DNA of 64,000 nucleotides from Escherichia phage pEC-M719-6WT.1 (OQ845957.1); one strand, 5' to 3'. Shown: positions 14,661-22,914, counted from the first letter of the stretch. Notes: generated by a model from the sequence alone, not told the origin. Numbers and translations: made by a program.

Positions 14661-15637
14661 TGTCTATCCAAGATAACACTGCTGGAGCATCTTTCAGGTG
14701 TTATCAACTGGCTGTAGGGAGTGAATCTACAGCCTTTAATGATAAGCCTACAAGTCATGCAAAAGACTCTCAAGAGATGGTTTATTTCGACAATTTACAG
14801 TTCACATGTAATGTCTCTTACACGTCTCAAAAGAACAAGGTGACAACTGATGATACCACGTTTGAAATTTATAACCTGAATAAAGAGATGAGAGCAAAGT
14901 TTAAAACAGTTGGTGGTACGGTAATGCTACGTGCTGGCTATACAACTGGCTTCAAGAGAGACTCAAACGGTGATTTGATTATTGAATATGATAACCTGCC
15001 ACTCATCTACTTAGGCACTATTGAGTATGCTTATACTTATAGACGTGGTGTGGACATGATTACTAAGGTAATCTGTTCAAATGACAAAATGGAAAGAACC
15101 ACTATCAAGAGTTCTATTTCATATAAAGCTGGAACATCCAGACAGAGTGTTATTAAAGACCTAGTTTCAAGACTTGGTTTCACACTTATTGATGAAGACC
15201 TTTCTAATATCCAAGGTTACACTTACAAGAATGGTTACAGTGTTTGGGGAAGTACAGCAGAGGCACTAACAAAGGTCTGTGAAGAAAGCGGTTTAAGATG
15301 GTACACATTCAATAAGCAAATTAGGATTGTACCTTTCAATGCTAAAGCTAAACAATTATCTTGGGAGATTTTCCCATACAACGTTATTGACTTTCTTCAA
15401 GGTTACTACAGAAGAACTAGAAAGGTTCTGAAGAAACAGAATAAGACTGAGATTAAAGTTAAAACTGGTGTACGTTGTAAAATCCACCTTGACGGAAGAA
15501 TTAAGATGGGAGACAACGTGACTATTCGTGAAAGTGAAGACTTTGAAGGTCAATACAGAGTAAAAGGTTTAGCACACAGCCTAGATTATTCAGGTGGTGC
15601 TTGGACAACTGAATTAGATTTGGAGAAGGTAGAGTAA
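14660..15637 (+). CDS. Tail/baseplate protein (P2 gpD-like position)
   Basis: 325 aa ORF preceding baseplate genes. Confidence 0.45.
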
Positions 15638-16278
15638 TGAAATCCCCTGTAACAAGAATGTCAGGGTACGTTACTGAGTGTTTGGATGAATTTAAAAAGG
15701 AACTCTACACTGGTTTACCAGCTATTATTGTTTCCTATGATGCTAAAACACAATCTGCAACGGTAAGGCCATTATACTCTATTGATGGTCTTCCAATGCC
15801 AGAGATTACAGGTGTTCCAGTTCAATTCCCTAGTGGTGGTGGAGCATCTTTAACGTTCCCTGTAAAGACAAATGACAGATGCTGGTTAGCATTCTCTATG
15901 CTTCCACTTGATGACTATGTAGTTAATGACAAGAACGTACAGATGGAAACAAATCTAAGAAGAACACACGACATGACTGACTGTGTAGCTTTTGTAGGTA
16001 TCTGTACAAGAACTCAGAACTTTAATCCTGACCCAACAGCAGTAAGGTTACACTACGGAGATTCGGTATTAAGAATCACTGATGATGGTAATTTCTGGTT
16101 CACTGGTGATGTTCATATTTCTAAGAATCTTTACGTTGAAGAAGATGTAATTGCCAAAGGTGAAGTTCATGGTTCAGATTTTGTCAGTGATACTACAGGT
16201 GTTAGTTTCAATGAGCATAACCACCATTACTACTGGACTGACGGTGGCGGTGAAGCTGATACAACAGAGGCACAATAA
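15637..16278 (+). CDS. Baseplate central spike protein (gpV-like)
   Basis: 213 aa; size and position match P2 gpV-type spike. Confidence 0.5.
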
Positions 16279-18166: not shown

Positions 18167-19024
18167 ATGTTACAAAAAATTGACAACATCTATGAAAAGA
18201 CGTTGGACGAAAGAACTGTAACACAATTCAAAGACAAGTTTATTTACACAAGTCTATTGAAATCTATCACAGATGAGTTACAATTGATTGAGGATATTAG
18301 TTTTCAGTTATACACTGAACGCAATATTCGTACAGGTGTAGGTCAGCAATTAGATAACATTGGGGCTTTGATTAAAGTCCCTAGACCTATTGGTGCTACA
18401 GACGAAGCTTACAGAGCTATCCTATATATCCAAATCTTTCTAAGACGTTCTGACACGACTCCAACGTTTCTTCAAAAAGCTATTATGACTCTTTACAATG
18501 CTACATTCAGTCAAATCTTTGAGCATATTACTCCTATGACTGGAGGTATTGTTATCAGAGTTAACACCAGAAACAACGTTGTAGATACAGCATACACACT
18601 TTCAAAGATTGCTGCAACAACTATCGGTTCAGCAGTCATCTTGAGGGATGTTACTTTGAATGGTACTGCATGGACACCTGTAGAGGTTGCTGACTCAGCT
18701 TTAGCAATCACTGATGACAAGAATAACTGGTTCGTTACAGATAACAACAAAGGTCTTGTAACAAACAACACAGGTGGCTCTCTTGAGGCTAACTTATTAG
18801 GAAGTTTAGCAGATGCTGGTGTAAGGGACGGCTACATGAGAGTTGATAAAACTGGTGGAAGTACCAGTAAAGATTACTTCAAAGTCTCTAAGACAGCAAA
18901 CGGTAATGATTATTTCATTGCTGGTAAAGAAACAGTCACAGGTGGTGATTATGGTGTAATGGCTGAAGTTGCACAAATCATCAAGGGCAGAAAAGATAAA
19001 TCCCAACAAGAAGGAAGTTCATAA
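18167..19024 (+). CDS. Baseplate/tail fibre attachment protein (gpI-like)
   Basis: 285 aa ORF between baseplate J-like and fibre genes. Confidence 0.45.
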
Positions 19025-19326
19025 TGGCAGATTTAAATTGGGCTACAGACTCAGTAGATGCTGATGGTAACCAGCTTAAAGTATTACCACCACCAGAAGT
19101 TCAAGCAACTGGTCTTTTAAGGGGTGAACCTATGGGTCGTCAGTGGTTTAACTATATCCTAAACTATCTTCTGGTAAGAGTAAACGGGACGGTAGGTGAA
19201 GTCAAATCTTTTGCCACTGAACAACCTGATTTAGTTGCAAGTGGTTGGACTCTTATTAAAACAGAAACAGGTACTGCAACAACATCGACAACAAACCTAT
19301 ACACATATGAATATGTAGGGGGCTAA
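19024..19326 (+). CDS. Hypothetical tail protein
   Basis: 100 aa ORF. Confidence 0.45.
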
Positions 19327-19328
19327 TA

Positions 19329-20516
19329 ATGGCAGTTGGTGAAATTCAAATTAGTGCATTACCTCAAGCCTCTCTACCAATCGGGCTTAGTGATATTTTT
19401 CACTTGAAGCAGGGTATTGAGGATAAAAGGTGTACACTAGAGCAATTACTTGCTCCACACGCATCTTTAAAGAATAACCCACACGAAGTTACAAAAAATC
19501 AGGTTGGTTTGAGTAGTGTTATTAACGCACTCCAATTAGTTGCTGCTAATAACTTGTCAGATGTTGTTAATGTTCAGGAAGCTAGAACAAACTTAGGAAT
19601 CCTTTCAAGTGACCAAGTTAATGCTCTTATTCAGGCTCACATTGATGACAAGAATAACCCTCACAATACTACGAAGAGTCAAGTTGGATTAGGTAATCTT
19701 CAGAACTGGACATACTCTAATTCATACTCTGAAGATGCTGACAGATACGCCACAGCAAGGGCTGTAAATGCTCTGTATAGAGCTATTCAGGATAGCTACC
19801 CAATTGGGACAATCCACTTATCAGTTAACCCTGCAAACCCATCTTCATATCTTCTTTGTGGTGGTACTTGGGAGTTAGTTTCAAAGGGTAGGTCTCTTGT
19901 TGGTTATGATACTGCATCAAGACCTGTAGAGTCAACATTTGGTAGTCAGACTGTCACACTCGGTTCAAATAACTTGCCAGCACACACACACTCTGTGTAC
20001 TTAGCGGGTGGTTCACACAATCATGACGCAATTGTTAGTATCTCCGGTTTTGATTATGGTGTTAAATCATCAAGTTCATTTGACTATGGAACAAAAACAT
20101 CAAATTTAACTGGTGCTCATAAACACACAATCAGTGGTACTGCTGCAAGCAACGGTAGCCACTCACATACGTCAACAGACTACTTTATTAATGAAGTTGT
20201 GGCTGGAAATAACTATGCCTTAAATGGTGGTGGTGGGGGCTACCAACATATTGCAACAAGGGACACTAGCAGTGCTGGGTTACACACACACTCAATCAGT
20301 GGGTCTACTTCATCTTCTGATGCTCACGCGCATACTGTAAGCATTGGTGCTCACGAGCATACTGTAAACATTGGTGCTCATAACCACAATGGAAGTGTAA
20401 GTATCTCAAGTACTGACCACACTCACTCAGGTACAACTGGTGCTGCTGGTGCAGGGCAAGGATTCAGTATTGAACAACCATCTTACGTTGTTTACGTGTG
20501 GAAGAGAGTAGCTTAA
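19329..20516 (+). CDS. Tail fibre protein with His-rich HxH-repeat C-terminal tip
   Basis: 395 aa; many HTHS/HAHT/HEHT/HNHN motifs; shares SFDYGTKTSN.TGAH.HT.SG module with next fibre. Confidence 0.7.
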   Translation: MAVGEIQISALPQASLPIGLSDIFHLKQGIEDKRCTLEQLLAPHASLKNNPHEVTKNQVGLSSVINALQLVAANNLSDVVNVQEARTNLGILSSDQVNALIQAHIDDKNNPHNTTKSQVGLGNLQNWTYSNSYSEDADRYATARAVNALYRAIQDSYPIGTIHLSVNPANPSSYLLCGGTWELVSKGRSLVGYDTASRPVESTFGSQTVTLGSNNLPAHTHSVYLAGGSHNHDAIVSISGFDYGVKSSSSFDYGTKTSNLTGAHKHTISGTAASNGSHSHTSTDYFINEVVAGNNYALNGGGGGYQHIATRDTSSAGLHTHSISGSTSSSDAHAHTVSIGAHEHTVNIGAHNHNGSVSISSTDHTHSGTTGAAGAGQGFSIEQPSYVVYVWKRVA

Positions 20517-20562
20517 TTATTTTTAAGGGGGCTGTAAAGCCCTCTATTAAGAGGATTGATAA

Positions 20563-22914
20563 ATGGCTGAATACAAACTAAGTGAACTAAACAGTGTTGA
20601 TACAGTTCGCTCAGACGACCTATTACATTTGAGAGTTATTAAAAGACCTGAAATGTTAGGTGACGAAGACCGTAAAATTACTTACGCAAATTTTCTAGCC
20701 TCATTTAGACTTGAAAGATTCCTGCAATTATCTGGTGGAAATATGACAGGTAATTTGGGAATTGTGAAGTTAACTTACGGTGGAAAAGATTTATTTGACC
20801 CTACAAATTCTTCTGAAATTTCTATTGGGGATACTGCAAAGACTTTTAAAGTTAATGCAAATGGTCTTGCTTTAAAAGTTGCCGATGCAACAAGAACTGC
20901 ATTTGTTTATCACACTCTGAATAAACCAAGTCCAGCAGATTTGGGTATGAGAACAAATGCTGAAAATGATGCAAGATATGCTATTAAGAATGCAGAGAAC
21001 ACCTTTGCAGCTAGACAGATTGTTAATATTAACGGTGCTGGTATTACCCTGAAAAGTATCTTACCAGATACTGGAGCATATTTTGAAGCAAGAGACTCTA
21101 ACAATGCTTTGAGATTTACTGTAGGTAACTTGGATGCAAGTTCAGATGTTACTTTAGTGAACAGTAAAGGTGCTAAGTTGACTCTTGGTTCAAACTCTGT
21201 TAGTGTTGATAAGAGTTTTGTGATTACTGGACAAGTTCAACCAAGTGACTTTGCAAACTTTGATGCAAGATACTTCACTCAGAATGCTGCTGACCAAAGA
21301 TTTGTAAGACTGACTTCAAATAACACCTTATCGGGTGCTAACAATTTCACAAACTATCAGACAATCATTTCTGATGGGGCTTTGCTGAGATTGAAGCCAG
21401 CTACAGCAAATGGCGCAGTGTTTGTTCAAGCCTACGCAGGTTCTGGCTCAGAGTCTTGGTATCTTGGTCAACCTGACGGGACTAAGCAGGATGTTAACTT
21501 GTTTAACCAGATGACAGGTGCAACTATGAGACTCTCTACAGAGTTCTTCTTCAGTAAAGCACTAAACGTTACTGGACAGGTTAAGCCAAGTGATTTCTCT
21601 AATTTTGATTCAAGATATGTACCAAGTTCTCTGACAAGCGTTATTGCTAGAACTAACTCTGCAAACACTTTTAATGGTTATCAAGCTATTATTTCTGATG
21701 AAACTCCACTTCTTCTTAAGAATAGCACACTGAATGCTCCTTTGTACATCTCAGGTATTAATGCCAATAATGTAAGAAGATGGTATCTTGGTAATGGTAG
21801 CCCAAATAACCCAGAAAGTTTATTTTTATCTAATGATACAACTGGTGCAGCTATTGTATTAAGTAACACTATTAATGTAACTAAAACAGTGTCAATTACT
21901 GGTCAAGTTCAGCCAAGTGACTTCTCAAACTTTGATTCAAGATATTACACAAAAGGTGTTTCAGATTCAAGGTTTATGAATACAACTGCAATTGGTGCTG
22001 CTGCGGCTGCTGATGGTGGTGTTTTATGGAATGCTAAAACAGGTTTGTATAGCCTGACTACGGAAACTGGTGGTTCAACAGACTTACTTTTGCATCTATT
22101 CCAAGGAACATCTTCTACACCATCTGCACAATTAAGGGTAAGGTACAGAAACGGTGGTGTTTGGTATAGGAGTGCCAGAGATGGTTATGGTTTTGAAGAA
22201 TCTTGGACAAAAATCTACAACGAGCGCGACAAACCAACACCTGCTGAATTGGGGGCTTATACTAAAGCTGAAACTGACCAGAAGATTGCAACAGCTATCA
22301 CAAACTCTACAGACCTTAATATGATTTACCCTGTGGGTATGGTTACACTTTTTGCCTCTAATGTCAACCCTAACGTAGCCTTTGCAGGAACTACTTGGAC
22401 TTACTTGGCAAATGGACAGTTCAGAACTATTAGGGTAGCTGCTGAGGATGGTTCAGATGTTGGTTCAATTGGTGGTTCAGACTCTAGAACACTTTCTGTA
22501 GGCAACATCCCAAGCCATACACATAGCTTCTCTGCAACCACAAGCTCATTTGACTATGGTACAAAAACATCTAATACAACTGGTGCTCACACTCACACAG
22601 TAAGTGGTAGTGCAGGTTCTGCTGGTGCTCACACACACACAGTTAGTGGAGTATGGACAAGTAGTACAAAACGTAGTGGTGGTTCTGATTGGAATACTCC
22701 TTCTACTGTTAGTACTGTAACGTCATCATCATCTGGTGCTCACACTCACTCCGTTAGTGGTACTGCTGCAAGTAATGGTAACCATGCTCATACAGTTAAT
22801 ATTGGTGCTCACGACCACACTTTCAGTGGTAATACTGATGGTACGGGTTCTGGTGCAGCATTTGACGTCACTAACGCATTCATTAAATTGATGGCATGGG
22901 TTAGAACTGCGTAA
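20563..22914 (+). CDS. Tail fibre protein (long) with three internal ~110 aa repeats and HxH-repeat C-terminal tip
   Basis: 783 aa; TGQVQPSDF.NFD.RY motif three times; C-terminal GAHTHTVSG repeats. Confidence 0.7.
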   Translation: MAEYKLSELNSVDTVRSDDLLHLRVIKRPEMLGDEDRKITYANFLASFRLERFLQLSGGNMTGNLGIVKLTYGGKDLFDPTNSSEISIGDTAKTFKVNANGLALKVADATRTAFVYHTLNKPSPADLGMRTNAENDARYAIKNAENTFAARQIVNINGAGITLKSILPDTGAYFEARDSNNALRFTVGNLDASSDVTLVNSKGAKLTLGSNSVSVDKSFVITGQVQPSDFANFDARYFTQNAADQRFVRLTSNNTLSGANNFTNYQTIISDGALLRLKPATANGAVFVQAYAGSGSESWYLGQPDGTKQDVNLFNQMTGATMRLSTEFFFSKALNVTGQVKPSDFSNFDSRYVPSSLTSVIARTNSANTFNGYQAIISDETPLLLKNSTLNAPLYISGINANNVRRWYLGNGSPNNPESLFLSNDTTGAAIVLSNTINVTKTVSITGQVQPSDFSNFDSRYYTKGVSDSRFMNTTAIGAAAAADGGVLWNAKTGLYSLTTETGGSTDLLLHLFQGTSSTPSAQLRVRYRNGGVWYRSARDGYGFEESWTKIYNERDKPTPAELGAYTKAETDQKIATAITNSTDLNMIYPVGMVTLFASNVNPNVAFAGTTWTYLANGQFRTIRVAAEDGSDVGSIGGSDSRTLSVGNIPSHTHSFSATTSSFDYGTKTSNTTGAHTHTVSGSAGSAGAHTHTVSGVWTSSTKRSGGSDWNTPSTVSTVTSSSSGAHTHSVSGTAASNGNHAHTVNIGAHDHTFSGNTDGTGSGAAFDVTNAFIKLMAWVRTA

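Follow-up and report, generated by a model that had tools for sequence, protein, structure and literature searches.

Two adjacent genes (19329-20516 and 20563-22914) in the window, by which we mean the whole 64,000-nucleotide stretch of Escherichia phage pEC-M719-6WT.1 (OQ845957.1) that was analysed, very probably encode two lateral tail fibres, one short and one long, a judgement made jointly with the explanation as a whole, in which each fibre is expected to end in a T4 gp37-type tip. The pair is an ordinary case of a known arrangement: two fibres with HxH tips have already been published for close relatives, and what is new here is the tip loops only. Homology, motif counts, a fixed repeat number and a mosaic pattern are established directly, and the model we propose is that these fibres would vary not through the number of three large repeats in the long fibre, but through swaps of shaft domains, swaps of head loops and the gain or loss of 9-aa needle layers.

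The fibre pair and its locus

By its sequence, the source phage is an Ounavirinae (Felix O1-like) E. coli myophage, and the window shares ~85% nucleotide identity across 25 kb with Mooglevirus and Felixounavirus phages. The conserved Ounavirinae fibre-pair layout is present: the genes for wedge 2 and wedge 1 (489 and 285 aa), the 100-aa platform protein, the short fibre and the long fibre follow one another in an order found in 10 of 10 relatives compared, and 3′ of the long fibre gene lie two small ORFs and, beyond them, the td and frd genes, which are convergent. Cryo-EM structures have been published for the short and long fibres (gp26 and gp27) of Bas63 (Escherichia phage JohannRWettstein; Sci Adv 2025, PMC12609058) and for gp52 and gp53 of Sf14 (a Shigella phage, Mooglevirus; Commun Biol 2025, PMC11821841), whose fibres measure ~430 and 630 Å. 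In both phages each fibre has a collar, an HxH needle and a head, with T7 gp17-like and Mu-like domains in the shaft (PMC12609058, PMC11821841). The platform protein encoded here is, by sequence, the orthologue of Bas63 gp25, which was named the long-fibre platform and is T4 gp9-like (PMC12609058); it belongs to the fibre context and is separate from the fibres themselves. The features are as follows:

19024..19326, + strand: fibre platform protein, 100 aa (86% identical to Bas63 gp25 over 100 aa)
19329..20516, + strand: short tail fibre gene, 395 aa (ORF; orthologue of Bas63 gp26 and Sf14 gp52)
19329..19793, + strand: short fibre N-terminal part, putative baseplate-binding region and helical linkers (74-90% identity to relatives)
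19794..19973, + strand: first half of the short fibre collar domain, T4 gp10 / gp37 D10-like (Pfam Gp10_C)
19974..20168, + strand: short fibre needle, descending arm, with HxH at 219, 230, 264 and 278 and two FDYGxK strand units
20169..20282, + strand: short fibre head loop, aa 281-318, predicted receptor-contacting tip (aligns with T4 932-959)
20283..20450, + strand: short fibre needle, ascending arm, with HxH at 319, 333, 342, 351 and 364
20321..20380, + strand: 27-nt tandem repeat, 2.2 copies with 93% matches (Tandem Repeats Finder), encoding IGAHxHTVx units
20451..20513, + strand: short fibre C-terminal strand, predicted to return to the collar (as in the composition of T4 D10; AF2 pLDDT 73-90)
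20563..22914, + strand: long tail fibre gene, 783 aa (ORF; orthologue of Bas63 gp27 and Sf14 gp53)
20563..20976, + strand: long fibre N-terminal putative baseplate-binding region and first, conserved shaft domain (73-90% identity to relatives)
20977..21297, + strand: repeat unit A, aa 139-245, T7 gp17 pyramid-like (Pfam gp37_trimer, unit HMM)
21224..21273, + strand: conserved linker TGQVQPSDFANFDARY closing unit A (family D6; further copies at 21569-21618 and 21896-21945)
21319..21639, + strand: repeat unit B, aa 253-359 (Pfam gp37_trimer, unit HMM)
21646..21966, + strand: repeat unit C, aa 362-468 (Pfam gp37_trimer, unit HMM)
21991..22311, + strand: fifth shaft domain, aa 477-583, Mu S′/P2 H-like (Pfam gp37_C; 8JU3 match)
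22315..22512, + strand: long fibre collar domain (Pfam Gp10_C at aa 585-705; 63-75% identity to relatives)
22513..22638, + strand: long fibre needle, descending arm, with HxH at 652, 676 and 690 and one FDYGTK unit
22639..22734, + strand: long fibre head loop, aa 693-724, predicted receptor-contacting tip (3-17% identity to 10 relatives)
22735..22911, + strand: long fibre ascending needle arm, with HxH at 727, 741 and 750, and C-terminal strand to the collar

The short fibre matches the NCBI entry 'tail fiber [Escherichia phage pEC-M719-6WT.1]' with 100% identity and also matches PHROG 2097 (tail fiber, E 3e-123), whilst the long fibre matches PHROG 4277 along its full length and shares 55% identity with Bas63 gp27 (100% coverage) and 60% with its Sf14 counterpart. 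The likely role of both N-terminal regions in baseplate binding is taken from Bas63; in the short fibre this part carries a duplicated NNPHxxTKxQVGL motif (19470-19520 and 19650-19700, direct repeat D10). In the short fibre the N-terminus and collar segments are 77-88% identical to Bas63 and the needle and head 12-56%.

Shaft domains and their exchange

In the shaft of the long fibre, a conserved N-terminal domain would be followed by three homologous domains like the T7 gp17 pyramid and then by one resembling Mu S′, with short, conserved linkers between them. Pfam gp37_trimer (PF20744) matches the three central domains in three stretches (164.5 bits vs. a cut-off of 21.7), and a unit HMM delimits three units of ~108 aa within nt 20977-21966, so that the repeats reported at 21130-22000 in the first-pass annotation stand, with a start slightly further upstream. 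A profile built from 19 units matches the T7 pyramid chains 4A0T, 4A0U and 7BOZ (E 4e-7), as well as Mu S (E 0.005). The linker motif TGQV[QK]PSDFxNFDxRY starts at nt 21224, 21569 and 21896 (spacing of 345 and 327 nt), and its G, Q, V, P, N, D and R columns are invariant. The fifth domain is unrelated to units A-C, exhibits 45-50% identity to Mu S′, and matches 8JU3 with E 3.6e-24 by sequence and 1e-29 by profile.

Compared with Moogle at the nucleotide level, unit A is 37-62% identical and unit C 35-52%, and between them a block of 83-100% identity runs from linker A across most of unit B (the protein identities of units A, B and C are 49%, 94% and 34%). Compared with Sf14, unit A has 72-90% identity and the sequence beyond it 45-67%. 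These switches between phages fall at or near the linkers, and one route of variation would be the exchange of whole shaft domains between phages at these conserved sequences. At the fifth position divergent domains occur in Michonne, HP1/Moogle/wV8 and JK55, those of HP1/Moogle/wV8 being longer, and on this sequence pattern the fifth domain behaves as a swappable cassette.

Such variability raises the question of whether receptor specificity lies partly or mainly on the shaft side (units A-C and the fifth domain), with several binding sites in series. The shaft domains vary as much as the tips and are exchanged as cassettes, the fifth domain has homologues within the Mu S′/D108 S′ and P2-type gpH fibres, variable host recognition is one of three possible reasons that the Bas63 authors list for shaft variability (PMC12609058), and the Sf14 authors suggest that the receptor may be contacted proximal to the tip (PMC11821841). 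The same variation could, however, also mean relaxed constraint or escape from a defence system, and we consider specificity in the shaft unlikely, albeit worth carrying as an alternative.

Needle, metal sites and head loops

In the preferred reading it is the tips that carry the receptor contacts. A histidine-rich C-terminal module had been proposed as common to both fibres, and it is present in both, along with every HxH motif that had been quoted: BLASTP aligns short fibre residues 157-395 with long fibre residues 589-783 (34% identity, E 3e-27). The string SSFDYGTKTSN-TGAH-HT-SG occurs in both (short 249-270, long 661-682; 73 nt with 85% identity at the DNA level, family D2), sitting at the start of the needle and not at the extreme C-terminus of the protein. 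There are nine HxH motifs in the short fibre and six in the long, against means of 1.85 and 0.95 and maxima of 8 and 6 in 20,000 shuffles of the C-terminal stretches.

The T4 gp37 tip structure (2XGF) matches short fibre residues 146-367 (E 1.4e-19, 2XGF positions 18-228) and long fibre residues 650-759 (E 2.7e-7, positions 105-214), and a gp10/gp11/gp12/gp37 D10-type collar precedes the needle in both fibres (Pfam Gp10_C; in the short fibre aa 156-276, E 2.8e-18, where 2XGF and the T4 gp10 chains 2FKK/5HX2 also match). H278/H280 of the short fibre and H690/H692 of the long align with H929/H931 of T4 gp37, which are iron ligands (PMC6957217). Together with agreement from the orthologue structures, these matches bear out the suggested likeness to the gp37 tip and support the module as a true homologue of this receptor-binding tip. 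A link to the zinc-binding gp12, suggested alongside, found no support: neither fibre matched a gp12 chain in the PDB at E ≤ 0.01, and gp12 has only a generic collar fold in common (PMC6957217).

We expect both fibres to be homotrimers ending in collar, needle and head, with a long, six-stranded beta needle in which each chain would descend, reverse at a small, variable head loop and ascend again. The metal in the T4 gp37 needle is iron. Here the HxH pairs of the three chains would face inward, each set binding one metal ion and stapling the needle, which predicts nine metal sites in the short fibre and six in the long; trimer, metal binding, receptor and recombination mechanism are all inferred from T4, Bas63 and Sf14. 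In the short fibre the sequence layout places four descending and five ascending HxH around the Gly-rich variable loop, where the AF2 model is of low confidence, and reversal of the chain at the head was observed in the Bas63 orthologue (PMC12609058). The homologous T4 D10 domain is made of two separate segments (residues 811-881 and 1010-1026; PMC6957217). As the AF2 monomer model is poor overall (pLDDT 62, pTM 0.29), being confident at residues 150-190 and 380-395 only (collar pLDDT 80-89), and a fold search with it gave no significant match, the needle geometry rests on sequence homology and on the orthologues.

We judge it very unlikely that the HxH clusters are compositional, low-complexity sequence or pH sensors with no bound metal. 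As the Bas63 density did not permit side-chain modelling (PMC12609058), metal sites in Ounavirinae fibres are predicted ones, a point in favour of that view; however, the His pairs match the T4 iron ligands residue for residue, ten His of the short fibre (219, 221, 278, 280, 319, 321, 333, 335, 351 and 353) show conservation of 90% or more across 50 homologues amid variable neighbouring residues, and HxH pairs hold 18 of 19 C-terminal-module His in the short fibre and 12 of 12 in the long. A metal-stapled, exchangeable tip is supported, mainly by what is known of the relatives.

The needle varies in length in 9-aa steps. The number of descending FDYGxK units (n) and of ascending IGAHxH units (n+1), each of 9 aa, change together across the fibres examined: the pairs are (1,2) in long fibres with T4-type tips (6-7 HxH), (2,3) in the short fibre of this phage and in T4 gp37, (3,4) in the Bas63 short fibre and (4,5) in that of Michonne. 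By regular expression 52 of 54 short-fibre homologues fit this rule, the two exceptions being misses of the expression itself, and IGAHxHTVx units number from 3 to 5 among relatives. We tentatively suggest, as a reading somewhat less likely than not, that needle length is set in discrete layers, that the 27-nt repeats are the real substrate of length change, and that the two fibres are tuned differently. If each pair of units amounts to one layer and one extra metal site, it is the 27-nt repeats, the sole true DNA-level tandem repeat within the two fibre genes, and not the 330-bp repeats, that vary length; one virion would then carry two fibres tuned to different needle lengths (nine vs. six sites), each bearing a new head loop of its own and perhaps reaching two depths of the lipopolysaccharide layer.

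The first-pass annotation had instead pointed to the three ~330-345 bp repeats of the long fibre as a substrate for length or host-range variation. The tandem repeats are real, with units A-C sharing 34-42% protein identity pairwise (z = 16-27 vs. shuffles) and a 50-nt linker common to all at 80-88% identity, features that would suit live unequal crossing-over with copy number changing fibre length and host range. However, exactly three units occur at the same positions in 11 of 11 long fibres from phages of Citrobacter, Shigella, Salmonella and E. coli, hosts here standing as a proxy for receptors; repeat number is also not variable among the 18 felixounaviruses of the Bas63 paper (PMC12609058); exact DNA matches between units reach 10-15 nt at most; Tandem Repeats Finder did not call the three-unit array; and the spread of long fibre lengths among relatives (781-848 aa) is located in the fifth domain. 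By the refuting condition that the annotation itself had set, an equal repeat number in phages that use different receptors, this part of the proposal falls. Crossing-over between the repeats is contradicted for the phages sampled and highly improbable in general, the array being an old domain triplication and not a DNA-level tandem repeat.

Folding of these fibres may differ from that of T4 gp37, which requires the chaperones gp38 and gp57A. No gp38- or gp57A-like chaperone was recognised by Pfam or PHROG among the two ORFs downstream of the fibre genes (64 and 124 aa), which match unknown-function PHROGs only, and the possible difference is suggested because of this and because homologues of gp50/gp51, the Mu fibre chaperones, are reported to be absent from the Sf14 genome (PMC11821841).

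The host surface is most likely contacted through the head loops, and the probable target is lipopolysaccharide, as in relatives. Neither loop has a close counterpart among the sequences compared. That of the short fibre has 12-33% identity to 10 relatives, no similar loop was found in the best 120 homologues from a search of 5.8 billion proteins, and it is unique among the sequences compared, whilst the whole tip of the long fibre finds a best match of 71.5% in 50,697 phage records. Exchange of heads would take place where the conserved His boxes are encoded, and the exchangeable tip that had been proposed is borne out in relatives: the REP11 long fibre has a near-T4 tip (E 2e-47) with similarity ending just past a GAHxHTV His box, and both fibres of UAB_Phi87 have an identical head (113 nt of exact DNA identity). 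Support is confined to these relatives: in this phage the two heads are unrelated to each other, and no exact match between the two fibre genes is longer than 17 nt; in a paralogue tree all short-fibre tips stand apart from all long-fibre tips. It is highly improbable that the short ORF encodes a structural protein of the baseplate, like T4 gp10, instead of a receptor-binding fibre, for although Gp10_C is its sole Pfam family match, T4 gp10 chains match it (E 1e-6 to 5e-3) and the best fold match, non-significant, is the gp10 C-terminal domain, the gp37 match is both stronger and longer and includes the needle, which gp10 does not possess, the gp10 match being limited to the collar (141-222), and the orthologue was observed as a 430-Å fibre in Bas63 and Sf14 (PMC12609058, PMC11821841).

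Comparison with known fibres

A close parallel is Bas63, which has the same gene order, neighbouring genes of the same sizes (489, 285 and 100 aa), a long fibre of 784 aa (783 here) with six HxH in both phages, and the same three central homologous shaft domains followed by a different fifth. It differs in its short fibre, which has seven HxH and three FDYGxK units against nine and two here, without the two tip-proximal descending HxH, and in its unrelated head loops (12-17% identity), the shaft units being 40-45% identical. For the Sf14 long fibre, domains resembling T7 gp17 and Mu gp49 were described, together with a distal tip like that of T4 gp37 (PMC11821841). Sf14 shares the nine-HxH layout of the short fibre and a unit A that is 77% identical, yet only four HxH occur in its long fibre, whose head insert is much larger, identity is 53% for unit B and 49% for unit C, and the heads are unrelated.

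Homology to the T4 gp37 tip (2XGF; collar D10, stem and tip D11) spans the collar, both needle arms and the head, with the SSFDYGTK-TN-TG-H-H motif conserved and the proximal layout of the short fibre (two FDYGxK, three IGAHxH) identical. However, T4 has seven HxH against nine and six here, it carries the tip on a four-protein 1400-Å fibre whereas here the tips are on single-gene fibres of 395 or 783 aa, and the head loops here are unrelated to its OmpC/LPS-binding loop. The likeness to T7 gp17 (4A0T/4A0U) lies in the pyramid-like repeats and that to Mu S/S′ (5YVQ, 8JU3) in the S′-like fifth domain, but in this phage such domains lie within the shaft, with another collar and a needle beyond them, and a T7-type tip domain was undetected by sequence in its fibres.

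The gp37 genes of T-even phages reportedly recombine at conserved His boxes and undergo duplications, in work attributed to Tétart et al. in 1996 and 1998 (J Mol Biol). The likeness to this plasticity is threefold: GxHxH coding motifs flank the variable loops, short in-frame repeats alter needle length, and the resemblance of REP11 to the T4 tip stops at such a box. That system, however, is the gp37/gp38 of Tevenvirinae, whereas here two paralogous fibres are encoded in one Ounavirinae genome.

Tail fibre locus of a Felix O1-like phage

The window belongs to a Felix O1-like myophage of the Ounavirinae. Over the first 25 kb it shares ~85% nucleotide identity with many Felixounavirus genomes and with three phages of Citrobacter (Michonne, Mordin and Moogle), and gene order was the same in all 10 relatives fetched. 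Two adjacent plus-strand open-reading frames within the late structural operon, with limits exactly as in the first-pass annotation, are already labelled tail fibres in the GenBank genome of pEC-M719-6WT.1, a phage with one passing mention in the literature (as pEC-M719-6WT). In GenBank, the protein "tail fiber [Escherichia phage pEC-M719-6WT.1]" matches the short fibre at 100% identity, and the second-best match to this fibre in a 5.8-billion-sequence collection shares only 72–74%.

Features of the fibre locus (window positions)
Upstream of the fibre genes: baseplate genes of 489, 285 and 100 aa
19329-20516, + strand: short fibre, 395 aa
20321-20380, + strand: tandem repeat, period 27, 2.2 copies, 93% matches (Tandem Repeats Finder), encoding the IGAHxHTV units of the short fibre
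20563-22914, + strand: long fibre, 783 aa
23001-23569, downstream of the long fibre: two small open-reading frames, 64 and 124 aa
23574-23597, bidirectional: terminator-like hairpin of 8-9 pairs, between the fibre operon and td/frd
Beyond the hairpin, convergent with the fibre operon: thymidylate synthase and dihydrofolate reductase genes (td/frd)

No recognisable tail-fibre chaperone adjoins the fibre genes. The two small downstream frames matched only PHROGs of unknown function (402 and 4038), each begins with a hydrophobic stretch by eye, and the second is annotated as a putative holin in relatives; terminators are annotated in Michonne and wV8 at the place equivalent to the hairpin. The N-terminal half of the short fibre carries the motif NNPHxxTKxQVGLxxV twice (19470-19520 and 19650-19700; 51 nt, 73% identity), and its residues ~36-135 are matched by several PHROG families of tail or virion structural proteins.

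T4 gp37-like tips and their HxH needles

The His-rich C-terminal module that the first-pass annotation proposed for both fibres was recovered by alignment, with residues 157-395 of the short fibre and 589-783 of the long fibre sharing 34% identity (E 3e-27). The motif SSFDYGTKTSN-TGAH-HT-SG, said to lie at the end of both proteins, does occur in both (73 nt at 85% identity between the fibre genes), yet marks the start of the needle, not the protein end. HxH pairs are enriched and conserved: the short fibre has 9 and the long fibre 6, against means of 1.85 and 0.95 after shuffling residues of the same C-terminal stretches, using a counting method that returns the published Bas63 counts (7 and 6), and across 50 aligned homologues conservation is at least 90% for each of the histidines 219, 221, 278, 280, 319, 321, 333, 335, 351 and 353.

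The tip of T4 gp37 (PDB 2XGF) matched residues 146-367 of the short fibre (E 1.4e-19) and 650-759 of the long fibre (E 2.7e-7), and at the level of sequence both are homologues of this receptor-binding tip. The T4 protein is divided into a collar (811-881 and 1010-1026), a stem (882-931 and 960-1009) and a tip (932-959), with seven iron sites in total and with H929 and H931 as iron ligands (PMC6957217). Short-fibre H278/H280 and long-fibre H690/H692 align exactly with H929/H931, the counterparts of the T4 tip loop are, by alignment, residues 281-318 and 693-724, and the collar is a Pfam Gp10_C domain. The suggested resemblance to gp37 and its iron sites is therefore upheld, whilst that to gp12 and zinc is not borne out, because no T4 gp12 chain was matched by either fibre at E ≤ 0.01 among PDB chains.

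By analogy with T4, Bas63 and Sf14, each fibre would be a trimer whose chain folds back at the head, with one metal ion per HxH triplet (9 and 6 predicted sites) and with head loops that would touch the host. Lipopolysaccharide, the reported receptor of Felix O1, Bas63 and VpaE1, is probably bound here too. An AF2 monomer of the short fibre, built on a 50-sequence alignment, reached pLDDT 62 and pTM 0.29 with the collar alone confident, and Foldseek found nothing for it in the PDB at E ≤ 0.001; the top match, the C-terminal domain of T4 gp10, had an E of 0.08 and was discarded. The model is uninformative for the needle, and its low confidence fits a structure that presumably forms only when three chains intertwine.

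The collar-proximal needle is built of 9-aa units, FDYGxK-type in the descending arm and IGAHxHTV-type in the ascending arm, the numbers of which co-vary as n and n+1.

Numbers of needle units (FDYGxK, IGAHxH)
(1,2): long fibres with a T4-type (6-7 HxH) tip
(2,3): short fibre of the window, and T4
(3,4): short fibre of Bas63
(4,5): short fibres of Michonne, HP1 and Moogle

With a simple regular expression 52 of 54 short-fibre homologues fit this rule, both exceptions being variant units that the expression misses (ATDLGTK and AFDYSTK), and relatives have between 3 and 5 ascending units. We infer that one unit pair may represent one needle layer with one metal site. The repeat at 20321-20380, absent from the first-pass annotation, is the sole true DNA tandem repeat in the fibre genes and would be the place for length change by repeat recombination, if any occurs in these genes.

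Two further HxH motifs were observed. In the Moogle long fibre (locus L004, residue ~721) an FDYGT unit reads HDHGT, creating a seventh HxH at a position without histidines in other fibres. Close to the C-terminus of the baseplate spike (15637-16278, 213 aa) lies another HxH motif. An iron-binding apex is described for the orthologues of this spike, Bas63 PA (H188/H190) and Sf14 gp47 (H194/H196), and by analogy the motif would be a third type of HxH metal site within the window.

Shaft units of fixed number and mosaic descent

Three repeats had been proposed in the long fibre, and at the protein level they are real: units A, B and C (residues 139-245, 253-359 and 362-468, from an HMM of 19 units) share 34–42% pairwise amino acid identity (z = 16-27, alignment with shuffles), Pfam gp37_trimer matches three stretches (E 6e-49), and the distances from one TGQV[QK]PSDFxNFDxRY linker to the next are 345 and 327 nt. 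Tandem Repeats Finder called no ~330-bp array in the window, and BLASTP of the long fibre against itself gave no matches off the diagonal. In profile searches the units matched the T7 gp17 pyramid domain (4A0T, 4A0U, 7BOZ; E 4e-7) and Mu S (E 0.005), and the fifth domain (residues 477-583, Pfam gp37_C) matched Mu S' (8JU3, E 1e-29). Two candidate extra copies were rejected: the fifth domain as a diverged fourth copy had an hhalign probability of 0.2%, and residues 55-123 gave a sole match to the unit HMM at E 6.2.

The three-unit shaft is fixed. All 10 relatives have exactly three gp37_trimer stretches, and the unit HMM located three copies, identically placed, in 11 of 11 long fibres, from phages of Citrobacter, Shigella, Salmonella and E. 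coli. The proposal that the repeats are a substrate for length variation is not supported, because unit number is identical across phages of different hosts (hosts here standing as a proxy for receptors), and the longest exact DNA matches between units are 10, 11 and 15 nt. Homologous recombination is probably inefficient over exact matches of this size. Long fibres of relatives do range from 781 to 848 aa, owing to divergent fifth domains that are longer in some phages. The Erwinia phage phiEa21-4, from the more distant Ounavirinae genus Kolesnikvirus, has two other genes, of 502 and 244 aa, in the long-fibre slot (locus L011, 5662-7914); these have neither HxH nor pyramid-like units, so repeat copy number is not comparable there, and their apparent likeness to the long fibre is confined to an N-terminal motif (by eye). 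Its short fibre keeps an HxH needle of 6 motifs, with no FDYGxK units.

Sliding nucleotide-identity profiles revealed a sharp mosaic in the shaft, with switches at or near the conserved linkers. For example, against Moogle, unit A has 37–62% identity, the stretch from linker A through most of unit B 83–100% and unit C 35–52%; against Sf14, unit A has 72–90% and the remainder 45–67%, whilst HP1 shares a single 60-nt stretch within unit B at 100%. The fifth domain has no nucleotide similarity in the closest genomes (Michonne, HP1 and Moogle), yet mostly 56–80% identity in the more distant Sf14, VSe102 and Bas63. This pattern argues that phages exchange whole shaft domains, probably by way of junctions at the conserved linkers. 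The authors describing Bas63 left open why shaft domains vary (PMC12609058); the mosaic suggests that cassette exchange, and not mutation accumulation alone, contributes.

Tip exchange and relation to known fibre systems

In a collar-plus-needle tree all short-fibre tips are separated from all long-fibre tips, and the duplication therefore predates the Felixounavirus/Mooglevirus split. The first-pass annotation had suggested a possibly exchangeable tip, and exchange is seen in relatives, not between the two fibres of the window, whose heads are unrelated. Recent gene conversion in the window was rejected: the longest exact DNA match between its fibre genes is 17 nt, and own-genome tip identity is 42% against a maximum of 43% with other genomes. 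Within the conserved SFDYGTK patch, 20 codons encode the same residue in both genes and 15 of these are identical, a raw count that is suggestive only.

In the Escherichia phage REP11, ~100 aa of the long-fibre tip (locus L006, 5169-5606) are almost identical to T4 gp37 (2XGF, E 2e-47), the similarity stopping just past the GIGAHxHTV His box and giving way to an Ounavirinae-type C-terminus, which looks like transfer between Tevenvirinae and Ounavirinae. UAB_Phi87, an Enterobacteria phage with a Salmonella host, carries an identical head, HTHTVGGHYGGDSIGGKQRVQASGTAQVSSVAGDHSHTVSG, on both fibres, the two genes sharing an exact DNA match of 113 nt (locus L008, 2118-2230 and 4577-4689). Its own-genome tip identity is 55%, whilst comparisons with other genomes average 44%, and the paralogous tips thus appear to have undergone recent gene conversion. 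VSe102 (locus L010) has nearly the same heads, with an exact match of only 32 nt. Tétart et al. are said to have found, in 1998, recombination at conserved His boxes in T-even phages, a picture that the REP11 and UAB_Phi87 exchanges fit.

The window's own heads share 12–33% (short fibre) and 3–17% (long fibre) identity with those of 10 relatives, nothing similar to the short-fibre head was found among the 120 best database homologues, and a search of 50,697 phage records gave best whole-tip identities of about 59% and 71.5%. Two differing heads, without a close relative among the compared sequences, suggest two candidate receptor specificities. Felix O1-like phages serve in diagnostics and therapy for Salmonella and E. 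coli, and host-range engineering could use the likely natural exchange junctions marked here: the linkers that join shaft domains (TGQVxPSDFxNxDxRY), the linker ahead of the collar (KPTPxxxGAYTKAETDQKIA), and the GAHxH boxes flanking the head.

The reading of the tips is supported, yet is already in the literature for orthologues. By cryo-EM of Bas63, the short fibre gp26 (430 Å) and long fibre gp27 (630 Å) both end in a T4 gp37-like tip, in which a collar is followed by an HxH needle and a head; gp26 has 7 di-histidine motifs and gp27 has 6. Among felixounaviruses repeat number is constant, and high variability is reported for the tips and for repeat domains 2-5 (PMC12609058). For Sf14, the long fibre is described as combining domains like those of T7 gp17 and Mu gp49 with a distal tip like that of T4 gp37, and the genome is reported to lack homologues of the Mu fibre chaperones (PMC11821841). 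Our profile searches agree with both papers on the shaft domains, and the window's long fibre shares 55% identity with Bas63 gp27 over its full length (783 vs. 784 aa) and 60% with Sf14 gp53. The genome is in GenBank, and the 2025 papers on Bas63 and Sf14 already describe this two-fibre layout, with its T7/Mu-like shaft and with HxH needles like that of T4 gp37. The weight as discovery is small, and the new elements are modest: unique head loops, a 9-site short needle, the linker-bounded mosaic, the n/n+1 rule and clear cases of tip exchange in relatives. The window's fibres are a new allele pair of this known fibre system.
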